A DNA stretch of 30,996 nt from contig JAYOTF010000034.1 of the NCBI GenBank assembly GCA_038150265.1, positions 1 to 30,996 on the forward strand, in the 5' to 3' direction. A program made the position numbers and the translations under genes. The DNA comes from Deltaproteobacteria bacterium. GTDB lineage: Bacteria > SAR324 > NAC60-12. Below are positions 1-21,813 of this stretch, one piece after another (within the stretch, counting starts at the first letter, position 1; each line of letters opens with the position of its first letter). The notes beneath the pieces were generated by a model. That model made no database searches. It was not told the origin of the DNA and saw only the letters and a list, made by a program, of their open reading frames with translations.

Positions 1-430
1 ATAACGATACCGCCGGTGTCGTTGTCGTCGGTTACGACAACAGCTCCTCAGAGGCAGGCACGGACAACGGCAGCCTCGTGCTGCGTCTGCAAAGCCGGCC
101 GTTTGACAACGTGACGGTCTACCTGCAGCAATCCGGAGGTGCCCAGCTCGGCCTGGTCCTCAGTCCTGCCAACCTGACCTTTACCAACAGCACCAACCAC
201 TGGAATACGGCCCAGACCGTTCAGGTGACCTCGGTGGACGACTCGGTGGATGAAGGCCGCCGTGGAGTGGACAACCAGACCTTTGCGCTGTCCCTGGACA
301 ACATTACTGTCACATCGGGTGTGACGGAAGATGCCAAGTTTGTGGATAACGTCTCAGCGACTGGAAAACTGGTGGGCCTGAGTGGAGCCCTTGTGGACAA
401 CCTGACGGCCCTCAGCCTCGACAATGATAC
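1..430 (+). repeat. Intragenic module repeat, near-identical in blocks to 796-1220
   Basis: 1-105 matches 796-900 (offset 795) apart from a few synonymous changes. The blocks 'cccagaccgttcaggtgacctcggtggacgactcggtggatgaaggc' and 'tcagcgactggaaaactggtgggcctgagtgg' occur in both copies. Confidence 0.85.
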
Positions 431-3400
431 GGCTCGGGTTCGGGTCACCGTTACGGACGCTGCTGCCGCTGAGTCCGGTGACAATGCGACGATCTCGGTC
501 CGTCTCGAGAGTGAGCCCTACGACAACGTCACACTTTCGGTTCAGGACAACTCGACCCTCACGCTGATCGGGCTACAGGCGACCGATCCCACGACCCTGA
601 CCTTTGGGCCTGGAAACTGGAGCACGGCTCAGACCTTCACGCTGGTTCCGGAGGATGATGCCTATGACGAAGGGGCGTTTGGTCCCGACAATCAAAGCTT
701 CCTGATCTCCCTGAATACGGTCACGAGTGGGGATGCCCTCTACAACGGGGATAACGCGACACGCTACAGCGACAACGTGACCATTCAGGTGGAAGACAAT
801 GACACCGCCGGTGTCGTCGTTGTGGGGTATGACAACAGCTCCTCAGAGGCGGGCACGGACAACGGCAGCCTCGTGCTGCGTCTGCAAAGCCGGCCGTTTG
901 GCTCCGTCACGGTCAACCTGCAGGTGCTTGCCCCACGTGCGGATCACGCCCTGACCCTCACGCCCGACAACCTGACCTTTACCAACAGCACCGGTAACTG
1001 GAACACGGCCCAGACCGTTCAGGTGACCTCGGTGGACGACTCGGTGGATGAAGGCGCGTACGGCCTGGACAACCAGACCTTTGCGCTGGCACTGGACAAC
1101 CTGACGGCCGACAACGCCTCAGATGCCAAGTTTGTGGATACGGTCTCAGCGACTGGAAAACTGGTGGGCCTGAGTGGGGCCCTTGTGGACAACCTGACGG
1201 CCCTCAGCCTTGACAATGACACGATGGGAATCGTGGTGGTGGCAACGGACAATGCGTCAAGCGAGTCCGGAACCCTCGGCACGCTGCTTGTTCGCCTCCG
1301 GAGCCGTCCGTACGACACCCTCACTCTGGATCTGGAAGCCGATAACGGGACCCGCTCCTTCTTCGATGGCAGCTCCGTAGTCACCGGGTTGCGGCTCTCG
1401 CTGGACAACACGAGCTTCAGCCAGTCTGGGGTATCGCTGAGCTTTGACAACGGCACCGATAACTGGAGCACGGCCCAGACCATCTGGGTGCAGTCCATTG
1501 ACGACTCGGTGGACGAAGGCGTATCGGACAACCAGACCTTCCATTTCTGGCTCCGTCAGACAACGAGCAACGCGAGCGAAGACCATCTCTACGACAACAA
1601 CACGTTGGCGCAGCAGAACCTGAATCTGAATGTCCTCGGTGCGCTGACGGACAACCTGTCGCTTGTTTCCACCGACAACGACTCGGTGGGCATTCGTCTC
1701 GCCTACGGCACGAATCCGGGGGACAACGTCTCCACCGAGGCTGGCGACAACGGGAGCTTCACGGTCTACCTGAGCAGCCGTCCGCTGGACAACGTCACCC
1801 TCTTCTTCAGTGACAACGACACGACCGGCCTGAGCCTGGGCCTGACCTTCACCCCGGACAACCTGACCTTCACGGGAGCGGGAGACAACTGGACCACGGC
1901 TCAATCCATCACCTTCGGGTCCCAACCGGATTCGGTAGACGAAGGCGCCCAGGGGCCGGACAACCAGACCTTCACGGCTTGGGTGTCTCAGGTGAGCAGT
2001 GCCGATGCCCTCTACAATGGGGACAACGGCACGGCGGTCAGCGACAATCTGACGGGCCTGGTCTCCACGGACAATGACACCGTTGGCGTTCTTGTCTCAA
2101 TCAGCGATAACGTTTCGACGGAGGCTGGAGACAATGCGACCTTTACGGTCCGGCTTCAGAGCCAGCCCTATGACACCGTGACCCTGCGGGTCCAGGGCGA
2201 CAACGCCACCAGCGCCAACGGAGACTCCCTGGGCATCTGGGTCACTCCGGACAACCTGACCTTCGCCAGGAACAACTGGACTCAGCCTCAGACGGTCACG
2301 GTGGTCTCTTGGGACGACCTGGTGGATGAGGGCCTGTGGGGCGCGGACAATCAGACCTTCCTCGTCACGCTGGTCTCCAGCAGTGACAACTACTCGGCCA
2401 CTGGGATGCTTTACGACAACCTGACGGCAACGCGGTTGATCCTTGGTGGCAACGAAGTCGACAACCTCTCGTTTGTCTCCACCGACAACGACTCGGCGGG
2501 CATCCGCCTGGCTTATGGCACGAACTCGGGGGACAACGTCTCCACCGAGGCCGGTGACACCGGGTCCTTCACGGTTCGGCTCAATAGCCGTCCGCTGGAT
2601 AACGTCACGCTCTCCTTCAGTGACAACGATTCCTCTGGCCTGAGCCTGGGACTCAGCATCTCCACCCAACTCACCTTCACGGGCATTTCGGACAACTGGA
2701 GTCAGCCTCAGGCGGTGTCCTTCAGTGCCCATGAGGATGCCTATGACGAAGGCGCGTGGGGCGCGGACAACCAGACCTTCACGGTTTCGGTGGTGAACAT
2801 TGCCAGCGCCGACGCCCGTTACAACGGTGACAATGCCTCACAGGTGAGCGACAACCTGACGGGGCTGGTCGCCACCGACAACGACAGCGCCGGGGTGGTT
2901 GCAGTGCTGGACAACACGTCCAAGGAGTCTGGCGACAACGGGACCCTCACGGTCCGCCTGCGCAGCCGTCCGTTTGACAACCTGACCGTTGCCTTCTGGG
3001 CGGACAACGCCTCCGGACGGGGCGTCTTCCTGAGCCCAGATCGTTTGGCCTTTGACAACGGCACGTGGAACACCCTCCAAACCATCCAGGTGGTCTCCAA
3101 TGATGACCAGGTGGATGAAGGCACCCAGGGCCCCGGGGACAACCAGACCTTTGCGGTCCGGCTGGACGCCATCACGGTGGACAATGCGACCTGGGATGCC
3201 TTGTATGACACCACGACCGTGGCCTTCCTCAACCTGGGGAGCCTGAAGGATGCGTATGACAACAATACCTTCCTCGTGGCTTCAGAAGACAATGACACCG
3301 CTGGGCTGAACGTGACCGCGTCCGACCTCGTGGTCCGTGAGGATCACACGGATAACGCGACCCTGACGGTGACCCTGAACAGTGAGCCTGATGATAACGT

Positions 3401-6400
3401 CACGGTCTCCTTCAATTCCGACAACGTTACCTATGGCGGTGCCGCCTTCCCGGAAACCCTCACCTTTGGCCCCGGTAACTGGAGTGCCGCTCGGACGGTG
3501 ACCATTGTGGCGACCGATGACTCTGTTGATGACGGGCGAGACCTGACTGGGGACAACACTACGTTTGTCATCCGTCTGGACAACACATCCTCTGCCGGTG
3601 ACTCCAAGTACGCCCTCGGCAGTGTGGTGCTCACAGGAACGGAAACCGACAACCTGACCTTCACGGCCATTGATAACGACACTGTCGGCATCCGCCTGGT
3701 GGCCACCGACAACACTACCTCGGAAGACGGCACCGATAACGGCACCCTGACCGTGATCCTCAATAGCCAGCCCTGGCCGGGGGAAACGGTGACCGTGACC
3801 CTCAAAGGGGTGGGAAGTGACAATCTGATCGCCACCAACACGAGCTATGGCCTGAGGCTCAACAGCAGCGAACAGCCGGTACTGACCTTTGACAACAGCA
3901 GCTGGAACAGCGCGCAAACCTTAACCGTGAGCGCGTTTGATGACCAGGTTGATGAAGGATCGGTGGGACCCGATAACCAAACCTTCACGGTGGGCGTGCT
4001 GAGCTCAGCGAGCACGCTGGGGGCCGGGACCAAGTATGATAGCGACAACCTGACGACCACTTACGGCGGGACGATGACCTCTGCTGACTACTGGGTCGAA
4101 GACAATGACACAAGGGGCCTGCAGATCACCATTGCGGGTAACCCCTTTAACTTGGATAACTCAACCTTGCAGGTGTTTGACAATGGGACCTCATCTCCTT
4201 ACCGGGTGAGAGAGGATCAGTCCGACAACCTCACCGTGACGGTGGTACTGAACTCAAAACCCACCGGGAACGTGAACCTCAACTTTGAGGTGGTGGACAA
4301 TGCCACCTATCAGGCAAATGATGCGACCGGTAACCCAGAGATTTCCCTGGATACGTACTCGCTGACCTTCCGCACCACGAACTGGTCCACGCCTCAAACG
4401 GTGATTGCTTCGGCCAATGATGAGTCCTTCGACTTGGACAACAAGTCCTTGGTTGTGGCGTTCTCAAGTTCGGGAGGCACCGGCTCCTTGTACGGGGGGA
4501 ATGATGGGCTGCAGGGAGAAATCCATCTGATCAAGGTGGACAATGATACCTCCAGTGTGGTTCTGACCACTCCTGACAATGCGACGTCGGAGGATAATGC
4601 CAGCAACACAGGTACGGTTCAGATTGCCCTGACGTCACGACCGCTCTATGACATGGTTGTGAAGCTCCAGTCAGACAACACGACCGCAGGAGTGGTCTTC
4701 CCGGGTGACAACGACACGGTGGTGTTCAGCTCGGACAACTGGACCGCGCGGACGCTCACCTTCCAGGCCGTTGATGATGACTTGGATGAAGAGGCACGGG
4801 GGGCCGACAATCAGACCTTCCACCTCTCCATTCTCCGGATCTGTAGCAACACGGCAGCGGTAAACTCCAATAAAGACTCCAGTACGACCACCTTGCTGAA
4901 GCAAGTCAACGAGGAAGCCGGCTACTCCTGTACCTCTGATGCAACGGACAAGTATTCGGCCCTTCAGTCTGTTGACAGCTACACCGACAACGTCTCCGTC
5001 TGGGCTGAGGATAACGACACCGCCCAGGTCCTGTGGACGCTGGTGGGGGGCGACAATGCCACGTCTGAGGACAACGCCAGCAACACGGCGGTGATCTCTG
5101 TGGTCCTGAAGAGCCAGCCGTACGACAACACCACAGTCACCCTGCTCAGCAGTGACAACGTGACGGGCTTCACGCTCTCAGGCACCGAGCTGGTGTTTGC
5201 TCCGGACCAGTGGAACACGACCCAGTCCGTCACCCTCACGGCCGTGGATGATGCCTACGATGAAGGCGCATGGGGATTCGACAACCAGACCTTCCGGATC
5301 TTCGTGGACAACGTTACCAGCACCGATGGCCTGTATGACCTGTCGACCGCGTTAGGTAACGGAGAGGACCTGCTGGCTGCTGATAACGGCAGCGGGACCG
5401 CTGTGCTCGGACAGGACAACTTCAGCATTGCCGTGCTCGACAACGACAGCGCTGGAGTGGTGGTGGTGCTCGACAACACGTCCAGGGAGTCTGGCGACAA
5501 CGGAACCCTCACGGTCCGCTTGCGGAGCCGCCCGTTTGACAACGTGACGGTCGTCTTTACGGCCGACAATGCCTCCGGTTTGGGCGTCTACCTGAGTCCG
5601 GATAACCTGACCTTTGGCTCGGACAATGCCTCGGGCCGGGCCTGGAACCAGTCGCAGGTCATTCAGGTGGTTTCCCATGTGGATCATGTGGATGAGGGCA
5701 CCCAGGGGCGTGGCGACAACCAGACCTTTGCCGTCACCTATGACTCCACCGCTGTCGCCGATGCGTCTGCGGATGGGCTCTATGACAACACCACCCTGGC
5801 CTTCCTCAACCTGGGAAGCCTGAAGGCTGCATACGACAACAACACCTTCCTTGTGGCCTCCGAAGACAACGACACGGCCGGGTACCGCCTGGCTTATGGG
5901 GACAACGTCTCCACGGAGGCTGGCGACACCGGCTCCTTCACGGTTCAATTGACGAGCCGTCCGCTGGATAACGTCACCCTCGTCTTCAGTGACAATGATA
6001 CCTCCGGACTGGGGCTGGGCCTGACCTTTGTGCCCGATAACCTGACCTTTGACAACAGCACCGACAACTGGAGCACGGCCCTGACCGTGTCCTTCCAGGC
6101 CACCGACGATGCCTATGACGAAGGCGCGTGGGGCGTTGACAACCAGACCTTTACCGCCTTTGTCAGCAGCGTCACCAGCGTGGATCCGTTCTACAATGGC
6201 GACAATGCGAGCAACCAGGCGGACAACCTGACGGGGCTGGTCGCCACCGACAACGACAGCGCCGGGGTGGTTGCAGTGCTGGACAACACGTCCAAGGAGT
6301 CTGGCGACAACGGGACCCTCACGGTCCGCCTGCGCAGCCGTCCGTTTGACAACCTGACCGTTGCCTTCTGGGCGGACAACGCCTCCGGACGGGGCGTCTT

Positions 6401-9400
6401 CCTGAGTCCGGCCTCCCTCAGCTTTACCGACAATGCGACCAGCTGGCAAACCGATCAGGTCATCCAGGTGGTCTCCAATGACGACCAGGTGGATGAAGGG
6501 GATCAGGGCGTGGATAACCAAAGCTTTGCCGCTCGCTTGGACGCCATCACGGTGGACAACCAGTTGGATCCCCTGTATGGCGACACCACCGTGGCCTTCC
6601 TCAACTTGGGAGGCCTGAAGGAGGCGTATGACAACAATACCTTCCTCGTGGCCTCTCTGGACAACGACACCGCACAGGTGCAACTGGTCAGTCTGGGGAA
6701 CAACAGCACCAACGAGGACCTCAGCGACAATGATACCTTCTCAATTGTCCTGACCGCGCAGCCGCGGGGCACCGTGACCGTTCACCTCCTTAGCAGTGAT
6801 AATGCAACTGGAGGGGACGTGCTGCCAGACAACCGGTCCCTGACCTTTAGTGGAACCAACTGGAGCCAGGCGCAGACCGTGACCGTCACGGCCGCCCAGG
6901 ACTTCATTGATGAGGGGTTGCAAACAACCTTTGACATCTCCATTGACAATGTCACCAGTGACAATGCCTCTGACATGTACGCCCAGACTGCGCTTCTGGA
7001 CAACAAGTCGCTGTTTAGTGGTGGGACGGACAGTCTGACCCTGACTGCGGTGGACAACGACACCATTGGCATCACCCTGACTCGGGTCGGAGGGGACAAC
7101 ACCACCTCGGAGGGGGGAGACAACGCCACCTTCACGGTGACCCTGAACAGTGAGCCGCGGGGTAACGTGACCCTCACACTCGGAGACAATGATACCTCGG
7201 GTCGAAACCTGGGGCTGGCTCTGAGCCCGGATAACCTGACCTTCACATCAAGTGACTGGAACACGCCGCAGACGGTAACGGTCTCCGCTCAGGATGACTC
7301 GGTTGATGAGGGCGTGAGGGGGCCGGACAACCAAACCTTCCTGGTCTCGGTGACAAGCCTCAGCGGCCCTAGCGGTTATGAGTACGAAAGCCTGTCATAT
7401 TTCACAGCGCGTGGGGGACAGGCGGACAACCTGACCTTCCTGGCCGAAGACAACGACACTGCCGCCGTTCGCTGGAAGCTGGTTGACGGAAGTGCCACAG
7501 AGGCAGGGGACCAGGCTTCCATCCTGGTGTACCTGACGAGTGCGCCGACTGATGGAGACAACGCCACCGCAGTGGATAACGTCACCGTTAACCTGAGCAG
7601 CAGCGACAACACGACCGGCTTCAACCTGGTCTGGAACGGCACCAGTGCCTTGACCCAGGCCCTGACGTTCGACAGCTCTGCTAACAACTGGAGCACGGGG
7701 CAAACGGTCACCCTGGTGGCCGTGGATGACGCCTACGATGAAGGAGCGCTTGGAGCCGACAACCAGTCCTTCCTCATCCAACTCGTCAGCACCAGCTCAG
7801 CGGATGCGCTGTATGACAACGCCTCCAGGCCTCTTGAAGGCGATAACGGCACCGGTACCTTCACTGCGGGTCTGGATAACTTCACCATTCAGGTCCTGGA
7901 CAATGACACGGCAGGCCTCGTCCTGACGGTCAACGCCTCTGACAACGCCTCCAAGGAGTCTGGCGACAATGGCACGATCCAGGTCCGGCTGCAGAGCCGC
8001 CCGTGGGACAATGTGACCACGACCTGGACTGCGGACAACGCGACCGTCACTCTGGCAGACGGGACGGAGGTGCCGACCGGACTGTTCCTCAGCCCCACCA
8101 CGCTGACCTTCGGAACCGATAACTGGAGCAGCGTCCAGACCCTGACGGTGGCCTCCTACGTCGATCACCTCAGTGAAGGGGCTCCGGGAGTCGACAACCA
8201 GACCTTCAACGTCTGGCTGGTCGCCTCCGACAATACCAGCAGTCAGGATGGACTCTATGACAACAACAGCCTGGGCCTGAGTCTGGGAGGAGCCCTGGTG
8301 GATAACGTCAGCATGGCCTCTCTGGACAACGACAGCGCCGGGGTCCTCTGGAGCTTCACGGACAACTTCACCCGAGAAGACAACGCCACGGACAACGGCA
8401 CCTTCGTGATCCGCCTCCGTTCCCGGCCGCACGACAACCTCACCGTTGCCCTCCGCGTCCAGAACATCCTGGCGGAAGATGGCTCGGATCCCGTGGATAC
8501 CGAGGTGACCTTCGACAACACGACGGTCGCCTTCTCCACCGTGGCGCAGTTCACGTCCTCCAACTGGAATCAGGACCAAACCGTGACCTTCTGGGCCATT
8601 GACGACAACGTGGACGAGAACACCCTCGGACCGGATAATCACACCGTGACCCTGTTCGTGGACAACGTCACCGCTGACAATGCCAGCACCGATGAGCATT
8701 ACGTCTACGACGCGGTCAACAACCGCAGCTTTGGGGTGGATAACCTCACCGCCGAGGTGGCCGACAATGATACGGCTGGAATTGCGTTGAGCTGGGCAAC
8801 GGACAATCAAACTACCGAGGCCGGTGGTACCGCTACGGTGAGCGTCCGTTTGAAGTCTCGCCCTTTCTTGTCAGACGGTTCATCCATCACCGCCCTCTTG
8901 AAAATCAATGGTGGCCTCCAGGGGAACGCTTATCTGCGAAGACCTGCAAATGCGACACTCCTTAGCTTGGGACCGAATCTGGGTGATTCATTTAAAGATG
9001 GTGACTTGGGCTTCTATGGATATGTCGAGCTCCCTGTTTTAACGTGGAACTCTTTTTCCTCTCCTCAAACAATTGTTGGTCTGGATAACCTGATCGACGA
9101 TGGTGACCAGGTGAGTAAGGTAAGTGCTTCAGTGAACCTGGCTGTGAGTAGCACAAACTTCAACAAAACGGATCCTATCTATGCTTCACTCATCGGTGAT
9201 AATGTCTCCAGCGAGTTGACCTTCACGAACGTGGACAACGAAACCACGCTTGCGATGGTCCTCTCCAAAACGAGTGTGAGCCCGTCTGAGAATGGCACAA
9301 CGGACAACTTCACAGTGGTCCTCAACCAGCGCCCAGGTGACAACCTCACGGTGACGTTCAGTGACAACTTCACCTACTCCAATGAGATTGGAGGGTTGAG

Positions 9401-10457
9401 CGATCTGCACTTCGAGACAACAGGGCAGGATAACTACACGGTCACGGTCCAAGGCTCATCAATCGTAGTGACAGCAACTCCCACCGGAACCTGGGGCACG
9501 CCTCAGACGGTGGTCGTGACGGCGGTCGATGACAACCGGTCCGATGGCGACCAGACGGCGACGTTGACGCTTTCGGAAGCCAACGGCGGGGTGGACAACG
9601 CCACGGTGTCCGTGACCACGGTGGATGATGAACCGGCTGCAGGAGTGGTCTACAGCTGGCTCAACAGCGACAACTTCACGGCTGAAGGGGGGCAAGCCGC
9701 CGAGCTGCTCATCAACCTGACCAGCTCACCCTTCAATCAGGGGACAGGTGCCGGAGACAACGCGACGGTGTTCCTCAACGTCCGTGGCAAGGACAACCAC
9801 TCGGTGTCCTTCAGCTCCGATAACCTGACCTTCACGTCGACCGACTGGAGCACGCAGCAGACGGTGACAGTGACCGCCGTAGACGATCACTACGATGAAG
9901 GGGTGAATGGCTCCGATAATCAGAGTTACCAGATCTACATCGACAATGTCACCAGCGGCGACTCCGTCTATGCGGCTGTGACCGCCTTCACGGGTCCGGA
10001 TAAGGCGACGGTTGTTGTTGAGGACAATGACCTGGCTGGCATCGGTGTGGAACTGATTGCCAACCAGTCGGATAACACGACCTTTGCCCTCAACGTCTTC
10101 CTCCTGTCGCAGCCGACGGATAACGGGACGGTTACGGTCAGCTTGACTGGGTTCGGAGCCAACACGCGCTTTGACAATGCCAGCGACCTGACAACGGCTG
10201 CGGCGACTCGGGACTTGACCCTGACCTGGGCCGACAACGCCACCGTTTATCTGACCAATACCAGTCAGAATCTGGATAACGAGTCCGATGACGATGACGG
10301 CATCAGTGACGGCTGGACGCTCTTCAGCTTCTCCGGGACGGCCACAGCCGGTGATGCAAACTACAATGGCAAGCAGATCGCCAAGACGCTGATCCGGGAC
10401 GTGAACACCGGCGCCATCTACACGGACTTTGACAATGGAACCTCTTTGCCGAAGTAA
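3..10457 (+). CDS. Giant repetitive surface protein/adhesin, 5'-partial (>3480 aa), ~25 tandem Calx-beta/cadherin-like modules, D/N/T/S/V-rich
   Basis: The frame is open from base 3 (NDTAGVVVVGYDNSSSEAGTDNGSLVLRLQ), so the GTG at 78 is internal and the true start lies upstream of the window. Modules recur as E.GD..T..V.L.S.P...V...LTF...NW...Q.V.V...DD..DEG...DNQTF and end in DND(T/S)xG. This resembles Calx-beta-like Ca-binding beta-sandwich repeats of large secreted proteins. Stop TAA at 10455-10457. Confidence 0.85.
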   Translation, partial: NDTAGVVVVGYDNSSSEAGTDNGSLVLRLQSRPFDNVTVYLQQSGGAQLGLVLSPANLTFTNSTNHWNTAQTVQVTSVDDSVDEGRRGVDNQTFALSLDNITVTSGVTEDAKFVDNVSATGKLVGLSGALVDNLTALSLDNDTARVRVTVTDAAAAESGDNATISVRLESEPYDNVTLSVQDNSTLTLIGLQATDPTTLTFGPGNWSTAQTFTLVPEDDAYDEGAFGPDNQSFLISLNTVTSGDALYNGDNATRYSDNVTIQVEDNDTAGVVVVGYDNSSSEAGTDNGSLVLRLQSRPFGSVTVNLQVLAPRADHALTLTPDNLTFTNSTGNWNTAQTVQVTSVDDSVDEGAYGLDNQTFALALDNLTADNASDAKFVDTVSATGKLVGLSGALVDNLTALSLDNDTMGIVVVATDNASSESGTLGTLLVRLRSRPYDTLTLDLEADNGTRSFFDGSSVVTGLRLSLDNTSFSQSGVSLSFDNGTDNWSTAQTIWVQSIDDSVDEGVSDNQTFHFWLRQTTSNASEDHLYDNNTLAQQNLNLNVLGALTDNLSLVSTDNDSVGIRLAYGTNPGDNVSTEAGDNGSFTVYLSSRPLDNVTLFFSDNDTTGLSLGLTFTPDNLTFTGAGDNWTTAQSITFGSQPDSVDEGAQGPDNQTFTAWVSQVSSADALYNGDNGTAVSDNLTGLVSTDNDTVGVLVSISDNVSTEAGDNATFTVRLQSQPYDTVTLRVQGDNATSANGDSLGIWVTPDNLTFARNNWTQPQTVTVVSWDDLVDEGLWGADNQTFLVTLVSSSDNYSATGMLYDNLTATRLILGGNEVDNLSFVSTDNDSAGIRLAYGTNSGDNVSTEAGDTGSFTVRLNSRPLDNVTLSFSDNDSSGLSLGLSISTQLTFTGISDNWSQPQAVSFSAHEDAYDEGAWGADNQTFTVSVVNIASADARYNGDNASQVSDNLTGLVATDNDSAGVVAVLDNTSKESGDNGTLTVRLRSRPFDNLTVAFWADNASGRGVFLSPDRLAFDNGTWNTLQTIQVVSNDDQVDEGTQGPGDNQTFAVRLDAITVDNATWDALYDTTTVAFLNLGSLKDAYDNNTFLVASEDNDTAGLNVTASDLVVREDHTDNATLTVTLNSEPDDNVTVSFNSDNVTYGGAAFPETLTFGPGNWSAARTVTIVATDDSVDDGRDLTGDNTTFVIRLDNTSSAGDSKYALGSVVLTGTETDNLTFTAIDNDTVGIRLVATDNTTSEDGTDNGTLTVILNSQPWPGETVTVTLKGVGSDNLIATNTSYGLRLNSSEQPVLTFDNSSWNSAQTLTVSAFDDQVDEGSVGPDNQTFTVGVLSSASTLGAGTKYDSDNLTTTYGGTMTSADYWVEDNDTRGLQITIAGNPFNLDNSTLQVFDNGTSSPYRVREDQSDNLTVTVVLNSKPTGNVNLNFEVVDNATYQANDATGNPEISLDTYSLTFRTTNWSTPQTVIASANDESFDLDNKSLVVAFSSSGGTGSLYGGNDGLQGEIHLIKVDNDTSSVVLTTPDNATSEDNASNTGTVQIALTSRPLYDMVVKLQSDNTTAGVVFPGDNDTVVFSSDNWTARTLTFQAVDDDLDEEARGADNQTFHLSILRICSNTAAVNSNKDSSTTTLLKQVNEEAGYSCTSDATDKYSALQSVDSYTDNVSVWAEDNDTAQVLWTLVGGDNATSEDNASNTAVISVVLKSQPYDNTTVTLLSSDNVTGFTLSGTELVFAPDQWNTTQSVTLTAVDDAYDEGAWGFDNQTFRIFVDNVTSTDGLYDLSTALGNGEDLLAADNGSGTAVLGQDNFSIAVLDNDSAGVVVVLDNTSRESGDNGTLTVRLRSRPFDNVTVVFTADNASGLGVYLSPDNLTFGSDNASGRAWNQSQVIQVVSHVDHVDEGTQGRGDNQTFAVTYDSTAVADASADGLYDNTTLAFLNLGSLKAAYDNNTFLVASEDNDTAGYRLAYGDNVSTEAGDTGSFTVQLTSRPLDNVTLVFSDNDTSGLGLGLTFVPDNLTFDNSTDNWSTALTVSFQATDDAYDEGAWGVDNQTFTAFVSSVTSVDPFYNGDNASNQADNLTGLVATDNDSAGVVAVLDNTSKESGDNGTLTVRLRSRPFDNLTVAFWADNASGRGVFLSPASLSFTDNATSWQTDQVIQVVSNDDQVDEGDQGVDNQSFAARLDAITVDNQLDPLYGDTTVAFLNLGGLKEAYDNNTFLVASLDNDTAQVQLVSLGNNSTNEDLSDNDTFSIVLTAQPRGTVTVHLLSSDNATGGDVLPDNRSLTFSGTNWSQAQTVTVTAAQDFIDEGLQTTFDISIDNVTSDNASDMYAQTALLDNKSLFSGGTDSLTLTAVDNDTIGITLTRVGGDNTTSEGGDNATFTVTLNSEPRGNVTLTLGDNDTSGRNLGLALSPDNLTFTSSDWNTPQTVTVSAQDDSVDEGVRGPDNQTFLVSVTSLSGPSGYEYESLSYFTARGGQADNLTFLAEDNDTAAVRWKLVDGSATEAGDQASILVYLTSAPTDGDNATAVDNVTVNLSSSDNTTGFNLVWNGTSALTQALTFDSSANNWSTGQTVTLVAVDDAYDEGALGADNQSFLIQLVSTSSADALYDNASRPLEGDNGTGTFTAGLDNFTIQVLDNDTAGLVLTVNASDNASKESGDNGTIQVRLQSRPWDNVTTTWTADNATVTLADGTEVPTGLFLSPTTLTFGTDNWSSVQTLTVASYVDHLSEGAPGVDNQTFNVWLVASDNTSSQDGLYDNNSLGLSLGGALVDNVSMASLDNDSAGVLWSFTDNFTREDNATDNGTFVIRLRSRPHDNLTVALRVQNILAEDGSDPVDTEVTFDNTTVAFSTVAQFTSSNWNQDQTVTFWAIDDNVDENTLGPDNHTVTLFVDNVTADNASTDEHYVYDAVNNRSFGVDNLTAEVADNDTAGIALSWATDNQTTEAGGTATVSVRLKSRPFLSDGSSITALLKINGGLQGNAYLRRPANATLLSLGPNLGDSFKDGDLGFYGYVELPVLTWNSFSSPQTIVGLDNLIDDGDQVSKVSASVNLAVSSTNFNKTDPIYASLIGDNVSSELTFTNVDNETTLAMVLSKTSVSPSENGTTDNFTVVLNQRPGDNLTVTFSDNFTYSNEIGGLSDLHFETTGQDNYTVTVQGSSIVVTATPTGTWGTPQTVVVTAVDDNRSDGDQTATLTLSEANGGVDNATVSVTTVDDEPAAGVVYSWLNSDNFTAEGGQAAELLINLTSSPFNQGTGAGDNATVFLNVRGKDNHSVSFSSDNLTFTSTDWSTQQTVTVTAVDDHYDEGVNGSDNQSYQIYIDNVTSGDSVYAAVTAFTGPDKATVVVEDNDLAGIGVELIANQSDNTTFALNVFLLSQPTDNGTVTVSLTGFGANTRFDNASDLTTAAATRDLTLTWADNATVYLTNTSQNLDNESDDDDGISDGWTLFSFSGTATAGDANYNGKQIAKTLIRDVNTGAIYTDFDNGTSLPK
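2850..3034 (+). repeat. 185-bp exact direct repeat, copy 1 (copy 2 at 6222-6406)
   Basis: Base-by-base comparison shows identity from gacaacctgacggggctggtcgcc to ggcgtcttcctgag. The tract spans a module boundary. Confidence 0.92.
6222..6406 (+). repeat. 185-bp exact direct repeat, copy 2 (copy 1 at 2850-3034)
   Basis: Identical to 2850-3034 at offset 3372. A third, diverged copy lies at about 5440-5600. Confidence 0.92.
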
Positions 10458-10460
10458 GCG

Positions 10461-11321
10461 ATGATGCGTTGGATTGGACTCTTTCTGCTCGCCGTGGGGT
10501 TGGGGGCTGGAGCGTGGTGGTACCTGGTGCCACCAACGTTTGAACTCCAGGTCACGGTTCTGGATGCCACCACCGGCGAGGCGCCGGATGAAACAGGTCC
10601 GGATGTGGCTCAGTTTCAGGTCCGGCTCTCCAAAAACCCCCGGGCGTCGGTGACCCTGCAGCTCACGAGCTCCGACCCGGAGCAGGGGACCCCGGAACGC
10701 TCGACCCTCACCTTTACCGAGGACAACTGGGACCGTCCGCAAACGGTCACCGTCCTGGGAACGGATGAGTTTCTCGACGATGGCGATGTGTCCTATCAGG
10801 TGCGGCTCTTCTGGGAAGATCCAGGCACCGACCGCAAGGCTGAGGCGGTGGTGGACCTGCTGGGACTGGATGACGACGAGAAGCAGATCCTCATTGGCTT
10901 CCTGCCCTCGTCTCAGCCGGACGAGGCGCGTCTGCAGGTGAGTTTGGCCACGCAGCCCGTCACCCCGGTGGAGCTGTGGGTCAGGGGCGGCGAGTCGAGC
11001 TGGAAGCACACTGGCCTCACGGGGCAGGAAGACGCCTTCCGAGCCGTCGCGTCTCCAGGCGTGCTTCAGTTTGATGCCAGCAACTGGCAGATCCCGCAGG
11101 TGGTGACCCTTCGGTCCCGAACGGGGTCGCTGGCCACGACAACCGACGCCGAAGCCCGCCAGAACTACGACTGGGTCATCCGCAGCCGCTCCGTGCAGCT
11201 GGAGTGGCTCAAGGTCGTGGTCCTTCAGCCTCATGACTCGGGGGATTACCGCAACTACAGCCACTCGGTGTTGCTCAATCCCAGCCGTTGCCTCCGCTGC
11301 AACCGCCCCCCTGCTTCCTGA
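10461..11321 (+). CDS. Membrane-anchored or secreted protein with about two Calx-beta-like modules, related to the upstream giant protein
   Basis: N-terminal hydrophobic segment (MRWIGLFLLAVGLGAGAWWYLV). It shares module motifs with the giant protein: FQVRLSKNP, LTFTEDNWDRPQTVTVLGTDEFLDDGD, LQFDASNWQIPQVVTL. It begins 3 nt after the giant gene stop. The start is ATG 10461 or ATG 10464. Confidence 0.75.
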   Translation: MMRWIGLFLLAVGLGAGAWWYLVPPTFELQVTVLDATTGEAPDETGPDVAQFQVRLSKNPRASVTLQLTSSDPEQGTPERSTLTFTEDNWDRPQTVTVLGTDEFLDDGDVSYQVRLFWEDPGTDRKAEAVVDLLGLDDDEKQILIGFLPSSQPDEARLQVSLATQPVTPVELWVRGGESSWKHTGLTGQEDAFRAVASPGVLQFDASNWQIPQVVTLRSRTGSLATTTDAEARQNYDWVIRSRSVQLEWLKVVVLQPHDSGDYRNYSHSVLLNPSRCLRCNRPPAS

Positions 11322-11606
11322 CCCCTTCCCTTTTCATTCTCCAGAGACCGGACGGTCCGGCCACGATTTCGCACAGCTCAGCGCCGGCTGACGGCGGCCC
11401 TGACGCGACTCCTGATCGTTGGCAAAAGGAGCGCGAGGGTCCGGCGTCCGCCTCCCCCGGTGAGCCGCCCCCGGTTGGATCACTCTGAGGTCGAGGCGCC
11501 CCAAAAATCCTTTCAGAAAAGCTCGTCATTATTCCTCCAAAAAACGTGTTCAGTTGCAGGTTCCTCCCCCCAATCCCGGGAACTTGTCGTAAATCTCAAA
11601 TTTTTA

Positions 11607-11635
11607 TTGACACCATCCAAATCGACCTCTAACGT
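11607..11635 (+). promoter_or_regulatory. sigma70-type promoter for the agl/glg operon
   Basis: Perfect -35 TTGACA (11607-11612), 17-bp spacer, -10 TAACGT (11630-11635), with an AT-rich UP-like tract upstream (aaatttttat). Confidence 0.75.
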
Positions 11636-11661
11636 TAATTCCCAGACCCTTTCCCCTCCTT

Positions 11662-11679
11662 ATCCAAAACGTTTTGGAT
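11662..11679. promoter_or_regulatory. LacI/GalR-family operator (AglR-like)
   Basis: Perfect 18-bp palindrome ATCCAAAACGTTTTGGAT with the central CG and AAAnCGnTTT core typical of LacI-family sites. It lies ~20 nt downstream of the predicted TSS of a sugar operon. Confidence 0.75.
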
Positions 11680-11747
11680 GTGAAGGTGGAAGGGCCCCGG
11701 ACTGCAGAGGGCAGGGTCGGGATTCGTTCAACAAACGGGAGATCGAG

Positions 11748-13067
11748 ATGAAGAAATTGATGAAGTCGATGCTGGCCGCTGTGGCCACGGTGGCTTTGAC
11801 CTCCGTTGCTTTGGCCGGAGGACATGGAGGTTACAAGGGACCCGACCTGACGGGGCAGACGGTGACCATTGCTGGTCCGTGGCTGACGGCAGACGAAGCG
11901 AGCTTTGACAAGGTGATTGCCGCATTTGAAAAAGCAACGGGGGCGAAGGTGGAGTACAGTGGCTCCGACAGCTTTGAGCAGCAGATTGTGATCGACATCA
12001 AGGCCGGAAGCCCGCCGAACATTGCCGCCTTCCCGCAGCCGGGACTGGCGGCCAACATGGCGGCGATTGACGGACTGGTGCCGCTGGGCAACGACGCGGC
12101 ACAGTGGGTCCGGGACAACTACGCAGCCGGGCAGTCCTGGGTGGACCTGGGCACGTACCAGAACAAGGCGGGTCAGGACCAGTTCTACGGCTTCTTCTAC
12201 AACGTCAACGTCAAGTCTCTCGTCTGGTACGTTCCGGAGAACTTTGAAGCCGCTGGCTACGAAGTCCCGAAGACGATGGAAGACCTGATTGCCCTCAGTG
12301 ACCAGATCGTCAAGGACGGTGGCACCCCGTGGTGCATCGGCCTGGGTTCTGGAGATGCCACGGGCTGGCCGGCAACCGACTGGGTGGAAGACATCATGCT
12401 GCGCACGCAGACTCCGGACGTCTATGACGGTTGGGTGACCAACAGCGTCAAGTTCAACGACCCCCGTGTCGTCAACGCCATTGAGACCTTCGGGAAGTTT
12501 GCCAAGAACGATGACTACGTGGAAGGCGGCTCCCGTGCCGTGGGCGCCACCGACTTCCGGGACAGCCCCAAGGGTCTGTTCTCGGTTCCGCCGAAGTGCT
12601 ACATGCACCGCCAGGCCAGCTTCATCCCAGCCTTCTTCCCGGAAGGGGTGGAAGTGGGAACCGACGCGGACTTCTTCTACTTCCCGCCGTTTGCCGCCAA
12701 GGCTGCCGAGCTCGGCAATCCGGTCCTCGGAGGCGGAACCCTGCTGGCCATCACCAAGGACAGCGAAGCGACCCGCGAGTTCATGCGCTACCTCCAGCAC
12801 CCGATGTCTCATGAGATCTGGATGGCGGAAGGCGCGTTCCTGACCCCGCACAAGGGGGTGGATGTGGCCAAGTATCCGAATGCGACTCAGCGCAAGACCG
12901 GTGAGATTCTGCTGAATGCCACCACCTTCCGCTTCGATGGATCGGACCTGATGCCGGGAGCCATTGGGGCCGGCGCCTTCTGGAGCCAGATGGTCTTCTA
13001 CGTCAGCGGCGCCTCCGCTCAGAAGGCTGCGGATAACATCCAGAACACCTGGGACTCCATCAAGTAA
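11748..13067 (+). CDS. aglE: Alpha-glucoside ABC transporter substrate-binding protein
   Basis: Start reassigned to ATG 11748 (RBS GGGAG at 11737-11741), giving signal peptide MKKLMKSMLAAVATVALTSVALA. Motifs GSPPNIAAFPQPG, KSLVWY, PWCIGLGSGDATGWPATDW, CYMHRQASFI and FRFDGSDLMPG match the AglE family. Confidence 0.88.
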   Translation: MKKLMKSMLAAVATVALTSVALAGGHGGYKGPDLTGQTVTIAGPWLTADEASFDKVIAAFEKATGAKVEYSGSDSFEQQIVIDIKAGSPPNIAAFPQPGLAANMAAIDGLVPLGNDAAQWVRDNYAAGQSWVDLGTYQNKAGQDQFYGFFYNVNVKSLVWYVPENFEAAGYEVPKTMEDLIALSDQIVKDGGTPWCIGLGSGDATGWPATDWVEDIMLRTQTPDVYDGWVTNSVKFNDPRVVNAIETFGKFAKNDDYVEGGSRAVGATDFRDSPKGLFSVPPKCYMHRQASFIPAFFPEGVEVGTDADFFYFPPFAAKAAELGNPVLGGGTLLAITKDSEATREFMRYLQHPMSHEIWMAEGAFLTPHKGVDVAKYPNATQRKTGEILLNATTFRFDGSDLMPGAIGAGAFWSQMVFYVSGASAQKAADNIQNTWDSIK

Positions 13068-13094
13068 TCCCAGAGCCATCCCTTCTTGAGTACC

Positions 13095-13114
13095 AACCGG
13101 GCTTCGGCCCGGTT
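13095..13114 (+). terminator. Intercistronic hairpin after aglE (mRNA stabiliser or partial terminator)
   Basis: AACCGGGC-TTCG-GCCCGGTT is an 8-bp stem with a C(UUCG)G tetraloop and only a weak pyrimidine tail. Confidence 0.65.
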
Positions 13115-13144
13115 CCTTCCCATGATCCCTTCAGGAGAAAAATC

Positions 13145-14158
13145 ATGGCCGATCAGATTCTGAGCGCGTTTACGGCCGTTTTCTTAGGTGTGGGAGCCTG
13201 CCTGTTTTACTTTTGGGGCAGCAACTTCCTGCTGGACCGCCTCCTGGCCGACCGGTCTGGCGCAGGCGGACACGTCATCAGCCGTGACGCGCAGCGCGAT
13301 GCCATTCGCCCCTGGCTCTTCATCCTTCCGGCAGCGTCCATCCTGTTCGTTTACCTCATCTACCCCGTTTATGAAACCGTTCGCCTGAGCTTCTACGACT
13401 CCATCGGAGAGAACTTCGTGGGGTGGAGCAACTACTCCTGGGCGGTCAGCAATCCCCAGCTGGTACAGGCCATTGGCAACAATGCCCTCTGGCTGGTGGT
13501 GGTGCCGTCGCTGAGTGTGGCCTTTGGACTGCTGGTGGCAGTTCTGGCGGACCGTGTCTGGTGGGGAACAGCAGCCAAGTCACTGATCTTCATGCCCATG
13601 GCGATCAGCTTTGTCGGAGCAAGTGTGATCTGGAAATTCGTGTACGACTACCGGGCGGCAGGGAGCGACCAGATTGGCATCCTCAACGCTGTGGTGGTGG
13701 CCCTCGGAGGCGAGCCCCAGACCTGGATCAGCCTGCCGTTCTGGAACAACCTCTTCCTGATGGTCATCCTCGTCTGGATCCAGACGGGCTTTGCCATGGT
13801 CATCTTCAGTGCGGCCCTGCGTGGGGTTCCGGAAGAGACCCTGGAGGCGGCTCGCATTGATGGCGCCAACGAGGTGCAGATCTTCTTCAAGATCATGATC
13901 CCGCAGATCATGAGCACCATTGTGGTGGTCTGGACCACCATCACCATCATTGTCCTCAAGATCTTTGACATCGTGCTTGCCATGACCAATGGGCAGTGGG
14001 GAACCGAAGTGCTGGCCAACATGATGTACAACTGGATGTTCCGGGGCGGAGGCGATTCCGGACGGAGCAGCACCATTGCCATTTTCATCATGATTGCCGT
14101 CATTCCGATCATGATCTGGAACATCAAGAAATTCCGTGAAGAGGAGAAGGCCCGATGA
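13145..14158 (+). CDS. aglF: Alpha-glucoside ABC transporter permease
   Basis: Multiple TM segments, EAA loop ([14 protein letters not shown]), [29 protein letters not shown] upstream. Confidence 0.88.
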
Positions 14159-15306
14159 AGATTCCTGTCCTCAAGATGACCCCCGGACGCCTGCTCACGC
14201 ACATCGGACTCCTGACCCTGGTCCTGATGTGGATCCTCCCCACCGTGGGCCTGCTGGTCAGCTCCTTCCGAGACAAGGATCAGCTTGCAGCAACCGGTTG
14301 GTGGACGGCGCTTTCCACGTCTCAGCAAAATGGCCAGGGCCGCACGGCTGCCGCAGACGAAATGGTGGCAGCAAACGGGCAGTACGTCATCTCCGGCAAC
14401 CTGCTCGAAAAACCGGGCCAGACGATCCTGACCTTCAACACCAACTTCCGGGACCTCAGCGCCTACCAGGCTGGGGAAACCATGGCGCTGAAGGACGGCA
14501 GCCGCCTCACGGTGGAAGCCGACGGCGCCTACCGCTGGGAGGCGGACCAGCCCATTGAGGCCAAACGCGGAAAGCGGATCTTCTTTGTCGCAGAGACGCC
14601 GCCGATGTTTACGATCTCCAACTACATTGAGGTCCTCAACTCCGAAGGCATCGGCCAGTCGTTCATCAACACCTTCGTGGTCACCATTCCGGCCACCATC
14701 ATTCCGATTGCCATTGCCGCCTTTGCCGCCTATGCCTTTGCGTGGATGGAGTTTCCCGGAAGGCAGGTGCTGTTTGTCGTGGTGGTGGGCCTGCTGGTGG
14801 TGCCGCTGCAGATGTCACTGATTCCTCTGCTGCGCATGTACAACACGATCGGGGAGTTCTTTGACGCGGCCTCGAAGTCGTATCCCGGCATCTGGCTCGC
14901 ACACACCGGGTTTGGCCTGCCGATGGCCATTTACTTGCTTCGGAACTACATGGGCACCTTGCCCAAGGACATCATTGAGTCTGCCCGGATGGACGGTGCC
15001 ACCCACTTCCAGATCTTCACGAAGCTCGTGGTGCCGCTTTCGGTGCCCGCGCTGGCCTCGTTTACCATCTTCCAGTTCCTCTGGGTGTGGAACGACCTGC
15101 TGGTGGCCCTCGTCTTCCTGGGCAAGTCGGACGATCAGATTGTGCTGACCTCGAAGATGCGCGAGCTACTGGGGTCTCGGGGAGACAACTGGGAAATCCT
15201 CACCAGCAGCGCCTTCATTTCCATCCTGGTGCCCCTCATCGTCTTCTTTGCGCTCCAGCGTTACTTCGTCCGTGGACTGGTGGCCGGTTCCGTGAAGGGG
15301 GGGTGA
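14155..15306 (+). CDS. aglG: Alpha-glucoside ABC transporter permease
   Basis: ATGA overlap with aglF, EAA loop ([13 protein letters not shown]), [34 protein letters not shown], and the large extracytoplasmic insertion typical of AglG. Confidence 0.88.
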
Positions 15307-15371
15307 TTGCAGAACGCAAGCGGGCGCTCCACCGCCGGGGGCCCGGAATTTCATGACTCGCATTTCTTACG

Positions 15372-17588: not shown

Positions 17589-17622
17589 ACCCCGCTGCTC
17601 AACCTTAGCCTGAAAAACGTCT

Positions 17623-20133
<2,511 letters not shown>

Positions 20134-20172
20134 CCGTTACCCTGTCCCCCCTCTTTTGCACTGGAATTGATC

Positions 20173-21813
20173 ATGAGCAATCCGAACTGGTGGAAGTCCG
20201 CTGTTTTCTATCAGATCTACCCCCGGAGCTTCCGGGACGCCAACAACGACGGCATCGGTGACCTCCGGGGCATCGCGGAGCGCCTCGATTACCTCAACGA
20301 CGGTCAGGGCGGGGGACTGGGCGTGGATGCGCTCTGGATCTCTCCCTTCTTCACGTCCCCAATGGCCGATTTCGGCTATGACGTCAGTGACTACTGCGAC
20401 ATCGACCCCATCTTCGGCACCCTTGAGGACTTTGATGCCCTGGTGGCCGCCGCTCATGAACGGGGCATCAAGGTGGTGCTGGACCTGGTCCTCAATCACT
20501 CCTCCGATCAGCACCCGTGGTTTCAGGAGTCTCGCCAGAGCCGCGACAACCCCAAGTCCGACTGGTACGTCTGGGCCGATCCGAAGCCGGATGGCACGCC
20601 TCCGAACAACTGGCTCAGCCTCTTTGGGGGGCCGGCCTGGACGTTTGACGAGGCGCGGGGGCAGTACTACATGCACACCTTCCTCAAGGAGCAGCCGGAC
20701 CTCAACTGGTACCATCCGGAGGTCCGGGACGCCCTGGCCGAGGTGGTGCGGTTCTGGATGAGGCGCGGGGCCGATGGCTTCCGCCTGGATACCGCCAACT
20801 TCTACGCCCATGACGAGCAACTCCGGGACAACCCGGCGCGTCAGTCCGATGCCCCGCTGCTGGAAACCGACAAGGGGGAGAATCCGTACTTCCGGGATTT
20901 CCTCACCACCTACTCCAAGGACCGTCCGGAAAACTTCGGCTTCATCCAGTTCCTCCGGAACCTCTTTGACGAAGGCGAGGCCATGACCTCCATTGGCGAA
21001 ACCGGAGGCTTCCCCGACCTGGAAACAGCGGTCCGGGTGGCGGCTGAGTACGCGCATGGCACCGACCGCCTGCACATGGCCTACAGCTTTGCTCTGCTCA
21101 ATGACCGGGTGGATCGCGACTACCTGGCCGAAGTGGTGCAGTTGACCGAAGCGCACATTGCCGATGGCTGGCCCTGCTGGTCGCTGGGCAACCACGACTG
21201 CCCTCGGCTCTTCTCCCGTCTGCAGGTGGCAGACAAACCGGGGTACCAGGCGATGCTGCTTTCGCTCCTGCTCTGCCTGCGGGGCACGCCCATTCTCTAC
21301 TATGGAGACGAGCTGGATGTGCCGGAGTACCCGATCACCCGCGAGGAGCTGCAGGATCCCTACGGCATCAACATGTGGCCCGATGTCATTGGGCGAGACG
21401 GGTGCCGCACACCGTTCCCCTGGTCGAAGACGGCTCCGCAGCAAGGCTTCAACGAAGGCGCCAAGCCATGGCTTCCGGCCCGGGCGCCCCAGACGCTCGA
21501 AGACGCCGAGCACGACCCGCACAGCACCCTGAAGGTTCTGCGCGAGATGATCCGGATCCGCAAGCAATCGCCCGCTTTGCAAACCGGAAGCTTCCGGGTG
21601 GTGGACGGCACGGAGCCGTACGTCTTCATCCGGGAGGCCCCAGAGGAAACCTGCCTCGTGGCCGCCAACCTCACGGGAGCCCCCCAGACGGCGACGGTGC
21701 CCTTTGAACACCTTGAGGATCAGACGCCACCAGCGCTGGTGCAACGGGGTGCGTTTCAAGGAGGAACCGTCACCCTGCCGCCTTATGGACTCTTCATTGG
21801 CAGAAAGGCCTGA
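20173..21813 (+). CDS. aglA: Alpha-glucosidase (GH13, AglA-like)
   Basis: WWKSAVFYQIYPRSF, DFGYDVSDY, DLVLNHSSDQHPWF, QPDLN, catalytic DGFRLDTANFY, GET and NHD, and GRDGCRTP. ATG 20173 is preferred over TTG 20167. Confidence 0.88.
   Translation: MSNPNWWKSAVFYQIYPRSFRDANNDGIGDLRGIAERLDYLNDGQGGGLGVDALWISPFFTSPMADFGYDVSDYCDIDPIFGTLEDFDALVAAAHERGIKVVLDLVLNHSSDQHPWFQESRQSRDNPKSDWYVWADPKPDGTPPNNWLSLFGGPAWTFDEARGQYYMHTFLKEQPDLNWYHPEVRDALAEVVRFWMRRGADGFRLDTANFYAHDEQLRDNPARQSDAPLLETDKGENPYFRDFLTTYSKDRPENFGFIQFLRNLFDEGEAMTSIGETGGFPDLETAVRVAAEYAHGTDRLHMAYSFALLNDRVDRDYLAEVVQLTEAHIADGWPCWSLGNHDCPRLFSRLQVADKPGYQAMLLSLLLCLRGTPILYYGDELDVPEYPITREELQDPYGINMWPDVIGRDGCRTPFPWSKTAPQQGFNEGAKPWLPARAPQTLEDAEHDPHSTLKVLREMIRIRKQSPALQTGSFRVVDGTEPYVFIREAPEETCLVAANLTGAPQTATVPFEHLEDQTPPALVQRGAFQGGTVTLPPYGLFIGRKA

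Follow-up and report, generated by a model that had tools for sequence, protein, structure and literature searches.

Contig C34 of a SAR324 genome (G000; 3.39 Mb, 87 contigs, 97.8% complete) begins with a 30,996-base stretch, hereafter the window, which opens with a stop-free reading frame at 3..10457 whose product is saturated with the motif D-N-x-S/T. Considering the sequence evidence as a whole, we think it likely that a PglB-type oligosaccharyltransferase (OST) encoded at G000:C23:2656-4851 N-glycosylates these motifs en bloc in the periplasm. The acceptor rule of this SAR324 subclade appears to require Asp at position -1 relative to the Asn, and not Asp or Glu at -2. The features on which the argument draws are as follows.

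3..10457, + strand: distal part of a giant protein, 3484 amino acids (aa), in a stop-free frame truncated at its 5' side by the contig start.
420..9233, + strand: array of Calx-beta-type beta-sandwich modules of ~125-155 aa, some split shorter, delimited by 27 DN[DE][ST] boundaries.
8763..10454, + strand: C-terminal 564 aa of the giant protein, with degenerate or non-standard modules, used as the anchor for ortholog searches.
10461..11321, + strand: downstream gene of 286 aa, with an N-terminal membrane anchor, two Calx-beta-like modules and zero D-N-x-S/T.
G000:C23:2656-4851, outside the window: putative PglB/STT3-type OST (GT66), divergent, 731 aa, recognised by a weak STT3 match and then by phmmer and Foldseek.
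G000:C24:1-2777 and G000:C61:3227-6559, - strand: pieces of putative giant lipoproteins with a sequon-free zone near the lipid anchor, recognised from site density along the protein.

The giant open reading frame (ORF) contains 314 Asn, 225 N-x-S/T sequons (x not Pro) and 200 D-N dipeptides, 195 of which (97.5%) belong to D-N-x-S/T. When its residues were shuffled 2000 times, N-x-S/T averaged 70 (standard deviation 7, maximum 94) and D-N-x-S/T averaged 7.9 (standard deviation 2.7, maximum 18), an enrichment of the observed D-N-x-S/T of ~25-fold. With a Ser plus Thr fraction of 0.229, the binomial probability of 195 motifs among 200 D-N is 1e-116. Across the 225 sequons the -1 residue is Asp in 195 and Glu in one, the -2 residue is Asp in two and Glu in nine, and the +2 residue is Thr in 147 and Ser in 78. 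A preliminary description of this DNA had estimated ~200 sites and proposed the shuffle comparison, and the counts bear the estimate out. It had also reported that all 13 D-N in the first ~240 aa are followed by x-S/T; every D-N there does lie in the motif, although their number is 12. The NLT, NST and NWS that it listed for the same stretch were found as ANLT, TNST and GNWS, and DNGT is present near the C-terminus as it had stated. All four D-N codon pairs are in use (121, 39, 30 and 5 times) together with ten different Ser/Thr codons, and the nucleotide pattern GAYAAY has 200 occurrences in frame 0, none in frame 1, three in frame 2 and two on the reverse strand. Because the codons vary and GAYAAY is confined almost wholly to frame 0, D-N-x-S/T is a signal at the level of the protein and not a DNA repeat.

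The sequence of 3..10457 is supported by contigs of four public runs (three studies), which match 28-30 of 30 bins at at least 95% identity and differ from it by no indels other than those of 9 bases; since these contigs cover nearly the whole gene, we take the DNA to be real. For 6500..10457 a look through RNA data sets listed none containing it. Its product is very acidic (480 Asp plus Glu against 122 Lys plus Arg). The longest homologs in G001, G002, G005 and G023 were tried as a test of conservation and dropped, as ~27% identity and 12-15% site retention marked them as paralogous arrays, and for this reason the C-terminal 564 aa were chosen to find orthologs. This anchor is 66% identical to a protein on G002:C7 (85/91 D-N in the motif) and 50% identical to one on G001:C30, a 3833-aa frame with 220/225 D-N in the motif that aligns at 53% identity across all 3484 residues. 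Upstream, the G001 ortholog extends into segments matching G000 contig C61, whose first ORF begins MMTSK...LLFGLLAC, a candidate lipoprotein signal. The window ORF itself has no N-terminus, and on the strength of this overlap it is probably the distal ~3500 residues of a ~6000-residue lipoprotein. Its residues from 3001 to the end carry 20 D-N-x-S/T and are thus sequon-rich up to the C-terminus. At the opposite end, the N-terminal piece on C61 and a paralog on C24 show a sequon-poor zone next to the lipid anchor, where the first ~420 residues hold 0-1 sites before the density climbs, as if the coating were meant for the distal part only.

In orthologs the motif is retained more faithfully than its surroundings. 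Compared with the G001 ortholog at 195 sites, Asp is conserved at 79%, Asn at 82% and the Ser/Thr class at 85%, while the identical Ser or Thr is kept at only 59% and x at 63%; non-motif residues are conserved at 50% and Asn outside the motif at 39%. The G002 ortholog (67% identity) keeps the complete motif at 86% of 81 sites. These values indicate that purifying selection maintains D-N-x-S/T among true orthologs, where Ser and Thr replace one another. Further hallmarks were scored in a pooled set of 23 DN-rich proteins (44,940 aa, 1311 D-N), in which only features other than Ser/Thr at +2 are independent tests because the proteins had been chosen as motif-rich. Here Pro occurs at +1 twice against 48.8 expected (p 3e-19); elsewhere it stands at 0.35 times expectation at +3 and is enriched 2.4-fold at -2. 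The hydroxyl residue is Thr in 763 cases and Ser in 439. Asp precedes 1201 of the 1584 N-x-S/T, 7.7 times the expectation, and Glu does not substitute for it, given that 25 of 73 E-N lie in a sequon as against 1201 of 1313 D-N.

The motif extends beyond the giant ORF to a restricted class of proteins. Among 2836 ORFs called crudely in the genome, 459 of 1405 D-N belong to D-N-x-S/T, and eight giant or contig-edge ORFs contribute 301 of their 320 D-N to the motif. A crude lipoprotein class has 22 of 44 D-N in the motif, compared with 108 of 858 (12.6%) in ORFs without a predicted signal (Fisher p 8e-9); the loose signal-peptide class stands at 22 of 173 (12.7%). Thus the genome-wide comparison advocated in the preliminary description, of exported with cytoplasmic proteins, returns an enrichment in giant proteins and lipoproteins and none in other ORFs. 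The motif-rich ORFs include unrelated folds (FG-GAP-like, alpha/beta-hydrolase, NHL-like and cadherin-like), and nine motif-rich ORFs with intact N-termini each carry an L-x-x-C lipobox, read by eye. One lipoprotein, at G000:C69:2242-3492 on the - strand, has the sequence DDSSLDNSSV repeated three times in tandem immediately behind its lipobox, and near its C-terminus a zinc-protease-like HExxH.

The modules of the giant ORF carry a mean of 8.9 D-N-x-S/T each. The whole ORF had no Pfam match at E 0.01, and when it was searched as four pieces of 484-500 aa, one of the four matched Calx-beta (PF03160; E 1.5e-6, 28.6 bits against a cut-off of 27). An AlphaFold2 model of one module, built from a 146-module alignment, is a beta sandwich with a predicted local distance difference test (pLDDT) score of 83.5, and its first eleven Foldseek matches are all Ca-binding (Calx-beta) domains of NCX/CALX or whole NCX1 (best E 1.9e-5). 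In the module model 116 of the 142 sequon Asn of 16 window modules (82%) lie in loops or insertions, compared with 58.5% of all residues, and many stand one or two residues before a strand start or after a strand end; the surface-loop location that the preliminary description had expected is therefore what the model predicts.

In the extraction of modules, a strict coverage filter left six, and relaxing it to 70% coverage gave 131. Motifs start at ~20 columns of the 146-module alignment, in agreement with the earlier statement that they occupy many non-homologous positions within modules. Only the boundary DNDT is common to relatives lacking the trait; about 15 further columns carry D-N-x-S/T in the trait clade only. 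Modules of relatives that are neither motif-rich nor found to have an OST carry 0.63 motifs each, nearly all of them the boundary DNDT (19/68 modules), and show S-G, G-T, A-D, S-D and similar pairs at the remaining motif columns, whereas modules of OST-bearing relatives have 3.0 motifs each. The Calx-beta fold has no need for D-N-x-S/T, because same-fold modules in trait-less relatives and in the product of 10461..11321 do without it. The preliminary description had held that the motif is not merely a copied Ca-binding element. That judgement stands for the other columns; the boundary DNDT, by contrast, corresponds to the ancestral D-D/N-D of Calx-beta and may be structural or Ca-binding.

The candidate enzyme at G000:C23:2656-4851 is, by sequence comparison and structural model, a divergent member of the STT3/AglB/PglB family with predicted transfer activity. 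phmmer aligned it to Campylobacter lari PglB (E 6e-7) over four collinear stretches that bring DTDML, TIxE, WWDxG and DGG into register. The top Foldseek matches of its model were 5ogl, 6gxc and 3rce (E 2e-13 to 3e-11, template-modelling score about 0.5), and further matches included yeast and mammalian STT3 and Archaeoglobus fulgidus AglB. Among 8000 candidates scored, 205 were homologous at E <= 1e-3, and most of the 120 listed carry PF02516 or PF21436. The closest lie in SAR324 cluster or "Deltaproteobacteria bacterium" records, and those at 33-41% identity in Deferribacter, Calditerrivibrio, Nitrospirae, Gemmatimonadaceae and others.

The functional motifs of the family were followed through 21 homologs. 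The second DxD motif, in external loop 2, reads GRIDTDML where C. lari PglB has YYDTDML, with R184, D186 and D188 invariant. In external loop 5, which holds the catalytic Glu, TISE aligns to TIME and T317, I318, S319 and E320 are invariant. WWDFGY aligns to WWDYGY of the WWDYG motif, which binds the +2 Ser/Thr, and W502, W503, D504 and G506 are invariant. The stretch MMTTLDAPFW, with invariant D62, resembles MITTNDGYAF around D56 of C. lari PglB, although a low-confidence HMMER alignment offsets the two. HDGGS aligns to DGGK without retention of the Lys. Towards the C-terminus the invariant D591-M592-x-G594-K595 reads MxxK, in a region with no alignment to a solved chain. The MI motif is MxxI and the DK motif DxxK, according to the accessible text of PMC8342417. 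Residues 591-599 as a whole read D-M-x-G-K-Y-x-A-[IL], are invariant and look like a hybrid of the bacterial MI and the archaeal/eukaryotic DK motifs. PglB Arg331 binds the -2 Asp of the sequon, as the available portion of PMC4894442 has it; at this position the G000 enzyme has Ile or Gly, within a stretch that in its genus reads LPGIL and contains no Arg, and the missing Arg331 fits the absence of a -2 rule in the motif. The OST itself carries D-N-x-S/T just upstream of the TIxE loop and NNTSPE in its periplasmic domain, both kept in most of the 21 homologs, and it may glycosylate itself.

The search for machinery proposed in the preliminary description thus returned one of the two kinds of enzyme it had named. 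A PglB/STT3-type OST is present, and a GT41/HMW1C-like enzyme (PF13844) gave no match at E 0.01 in the 97.8%-complete genome, where control genomes were matched. A further glycosyltransferase of fold class C (GT-C), PMT/ArnT-like, came up as the STT3-family match in OST-less genomes of genus g11; it has no WWD motif, occurs in 8 of 88 genomes, is absent from genera g1, g2 and g12, and was rejected as a clade-wide enzyme. In the near-contiguous g11 assembly G056 its gene (G056:C3:678032-680051) is broken by several stop codons, while the orthologs in G018 and G012 are intact. The sole Bac_transf gene of G000 encodes a WcaJ-like transferase (C1:188938-190341) among unrelated genes. A fragment of a WecA-like homolog ends contig C43, and its assembled side is without glycan-related genes.

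The distribution of motif and enzyme was compared across the phylum. Genomes were grouped by OST presence, and a motif-poor query consisting of residues 1-470 of the C24 protein served to retrieve homologs. In OST-bearing genomes 84-96% of the D-N of giant homologs lie in the motif (G001 122/140; G002 118/131; G005 72/86 and 37/44; G019 46/48; G023 51/54 and 59/68), compared with 8-53%, at a 3- to 10-fold lower D-N density, for homologs in G004, G008, G009, G010, G011, G017, G030 and G039. Exceptions occur both ways: G013 (49/54), G024 (20/24) and G018 (8/9) are motif-rich with no OST detected, and G020 has an OST yet 0/6 D-N of its homolog in the motif. We also counted a DNA pattern, two D-N-x-T within 1-11 codons, against a reversed-pattern control in 88 genomes of the phylum. 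It occurs 71 times against 0 in G000 and 65 and 80 times in sister genomes, and is raised only in genera g1, g2, g4, g11 and g12, with the rest at control level. A profile search found the OST in 15 of the 88 genomes (g1 3/3, g4 3/3, g12 2/3, g2 3/9, g11 3/18 and one weak match, 5e-8, in g37). In a quick RpoB tree the same five genera form one clade (12 rows, Shimodaira-Hasegawa-like approximate likelihood-ratio test 94), bar one row that is likely a wrong-frame artefact; G019, G025 and G026 sit on very long branches, probably from a wrong frame, and their placement was ignored.

Several findings weigh against the proposal that this OST modifies the motif. The enzyme was found in just 14 of the 36 genomes of the motif-bearing clade, and it is missing in G056 (5 contigs, 86% complete) and G014 (99% complete), whose lipoproteins have 78-100% D-N-x-S/T; a 966-aa protein of G012, with 0/10, is an exception among the OST-less assemblies. 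Motif and OST co-occur in genera that make up a single clade, so their shared distribution amounts to one evolutionary event without replication. Records of OST relatives outside SAR324 gave no clear motif signal (Deferribacter 4 against 0 in the control, Nitrospirae 6 against 4, Gemmatimonadaceae 0 against 0). The neighbours of the OST in G000 are an adenosine deaminase, an HlyD-type protein and an FAD oxidase, with no glycan genes adjoining, and in four of the eight related loci examined (L058, L059, L060 and L063) its Pfam-matched neighbours are housekeeping genes. Confidence in the structural model of the OST is low (pLDDT 61.8; periplasmic residues 492-615 poor), and a comparison of 26 SAR324 with 13 outgroup OSTs yielded no SAR324-specific basic residue for reading the -1 Asp, the standouts being only P64, M189, W341 and a few others.

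The retention of the motif in OST-less assemblies, the patchy presence of the enzyme and the lack of a pgl-type cluster beside it in G000 would all suit a different enzyme, one that O-glycosylates the Ser/Thr with D-N as its recognition element or that modifies the Asn without being of the PglB type; the Bacteroidetes O-glycosylation motif likewise has Asp right before the modified residue. We consider this unlikely. The motif is a canonical N-sequon with strict exclusion of Pro at +1 and a preference for Thr, no GT41/HMW1C-like gene was found in the genome, and the PMT/ArnT-like enzyme is too sparsely distributed, and in G056 broken. Moreover, the absence of the OST from draft assemblies is weak evidence, because OST genes are often split or cut by contig ends, as several of those detected are, and because the OST of locus L061 is missing elsewhere together with its two flanking genes. 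That locus (24-6914), the one of the eight with a glycan cluster around the OST, is compact and encodes a GFO-type oxidoreductase, a GT1 glycosyltransferase, a UDP-GlcNAc 2-epimerase, the OST and a WecA-like transferase; the OST and both flanking genes are jointly missing from four other g11 assemblies, which suggests that the block varies or was assembled poorly. Four related loci have a CDP-alcohol phosphatidyltransferase on one side of the OST, and in two of them RuvB adjoins it.

It is quite improbable that a relaxed OST glycosylates N-x-S/T generally while the -1 Asp is selected for another reason, such as a turn exposing the Asn, Ca2+ binding near the glycan or protease resistance. Such an enzyme would account for the 30 of 225 sequons without Asp at -1 and for the missing Asp-reading residue, and Desulfovibrio PglBs are relaxed in the part of PMC4894442 consulted. 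Those 30 sequons, however, are about half the number implied by the shuffle means, Asp is enriched 7.7-fold at -1 with Glu not accepted instead, and Asp and Asn are conserved nearly equally, as expected for one recognition element. We hold it very improbable that the motif is unmodified, a structural or Ca2+-binding element of an acidic repeat protein spread by repeat homogenisation. The protein is indeed very acidic, its modules are repeats, so that motif counts are not independent, and the boundary DNDT matches the Calx-beta D-D/N-D even in trait-less relatives. Against this, ~15 further columns have the motif in the trait clade only, and the same fold exists without it elsewhere and in 10461..11321; the motif recurs in unrelated folds, and there only in lipoproteins and giant proteins; Ser and Thr interchange, x varies and Pro is excluded at +1; and a Ca site would need no hydroxyl at +2 at ~20 places of one fold. 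N-glycosylation by the PglB-type OST therefore remains our preferred reading, and the interpretation offered in the preliminary description, a hyper-N-glycosylated surface protein, gains support from the enrichment, the confinement to lipoproteins, the OST and the loop positions of the sites; site modification, the enzyme that would act and the mucin-like sheath are predictions from these.

According to the model, a glycan assembled on undecaprenyl phosphate would be flipped into the periplasm, where it would be moved onto loop Asn while the Sec-exported lipoprotein is still unfolded and accessible. The lipoprotein would then reach the cell surface with ~400 membrane-proximal residues bare and with one glycan per ~18 residues on its distal modules, giving a dense sugar coat. 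The order of Sec export, periplasmic transfer and surface display is inferred because it is established for PglB systems. We give an even chance to the fuller picture, in which a SAR324 subclade has its own D-N-x-S/T code, a PglB-type enzyme whose acidic requirement has shifted from -2 to -1, and a coat of megadalton lipoproteins with several hundred N-glycans each. The model makes a sharp prediction, namely that the Asn of D-N-x-S/T peptides bears glycan and that Asn in other contexts mostly does not.

To our knowledge, nearly all known cases of N-glycosylation in bacteria belong to Campylobacterota and a few Desulfovibrio, where the rule is D/E-x-N-x-S/T or a relaxed one. If the proposal is true, SAR324 would add a third acceptor rule, a strict one with Asp at -1, read from natural substrates across 36 genomes, together with a general N-glycosylation system in a widespread marine phylum without a cultured model. 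SAR324 is abundant among the bacteria of the dark ocean, and the system would offer an account of how the surface of these cells is built, from giant lipoproteins with one sugar site per ~18 residues; this matters for particle attachment, grazing and phage adsorption. No bacterial protein described so far would be N-glycosylated as densely, and enzyme and sequon would form a naturally orthogonal pair for glycoengineering, usable alongside C. jejuni PglB without cross-talk.

Downstream of the giant ORF, the gene at 10461..11321 begins 4 bases after the stop codon, and in G001 the ortholog is followed by a gene like it. The product of 10461..11321 has no Pfam match and may help to anchor or assemble the giant protein. 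A sugar-uptake/glycogen block lies directly downstream at 11460-21813 (solute-binding protein, two ABC permeases, GlgB, glycogen phosphorylase and alpha-amylase), followed by paaA/C/D, TetR and enoyl-CoA hydratase genes for which no link to the motif was seen.

A literature search on D-N-x-S/T sequons, extended sequons, deltaproteobacterial and metagenomic PglBs and SAR324 glycosylation found no Asp(-1) sequon and no SAR324 protein glycosylation, and several known systems resemble parts of the one proposed here. Mills et al. in 2016 reportedly studied deep-sea vent PglBs including that of Deferribacter desulfuricans, which may be relevant to the sequons that the nearest cultured relatives favour. 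The general O-glycosylation motif of Bacteroidetes, D-(S/T)-(A/I/L/V/M/T), is phylum-wide and found in many exported proteins; like the SAR324 motif it is short and has Asp right before the modified residue, and unlike it the linkage is to oxygen and the motif has three residues without Asn. The modules share fold, acidic boundary motif and D-D..E strand with Calx-beta (PF03160; NCX1 CBD1/CBD2, 2DPK and 2FWS), unlike which each SAR324 module has ~9 D-N-x-S/T grafted on its loops and scores barely at the Pfam cut-off. HMW1C/NGT systems likewise involve large surface adhesins with many N-x-S/T, as far as the accessible text of PMC5303269 and PMC6025236 goes; their enzymes are cytoplasmic GT41 proteins adding single hexoses, in contrast to G000 with no GT41 gene found. 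Some deep-sea vent PglBs show "differing sequon recognition", in the words of the latter source.

The Desulfovibrio PglBs (Ollis et al. 2015, PMC4894442, in its accessible part) come from former Deltaproteobacteria and likewise need no Asp or Glu at -2; the Arg331 position is not Arg in those of D. desulfuricans and D. vulgaris. They are described there as relaxed at -2, -1 and +1, with no natural hyper-glycosylated substrate among the material presented, whereas the SAR324 substrates imply a strict -1 requirement. The site choice of Trypanosoma brucei TbSTT3A also depends on surrounding acidic residues (PMC5724017, accessible text), as a diffuse eukaryotic charge preference unlike the fixed Asp at one SAR324 position. 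With the PglB of Campylobacter jejuni and C. lari (3RCE, 5OGL, 6GXC) the SAR324 enzyme would share the single-subunit periplasmic OST fold with DxD, TIxE and WWDxG, the targeting of many exported proteins and lipoproteins, and an N-x-S/T extended by an acidic residue. The two differ in that the SAR324 enzyme has no equivalent of Arg331, is ~17% identical over the structural alignment, scores 54 bits on the NCBIfam PglB model against a cut-off of 1300 bits and has no pgl cluster around it in G000. In SAR324 the acidic residue is at -1 and is Asp only, -2 Asp or Glu occurring at just 11 of 225 sites, and the sites reach a density of hundreds per protein.

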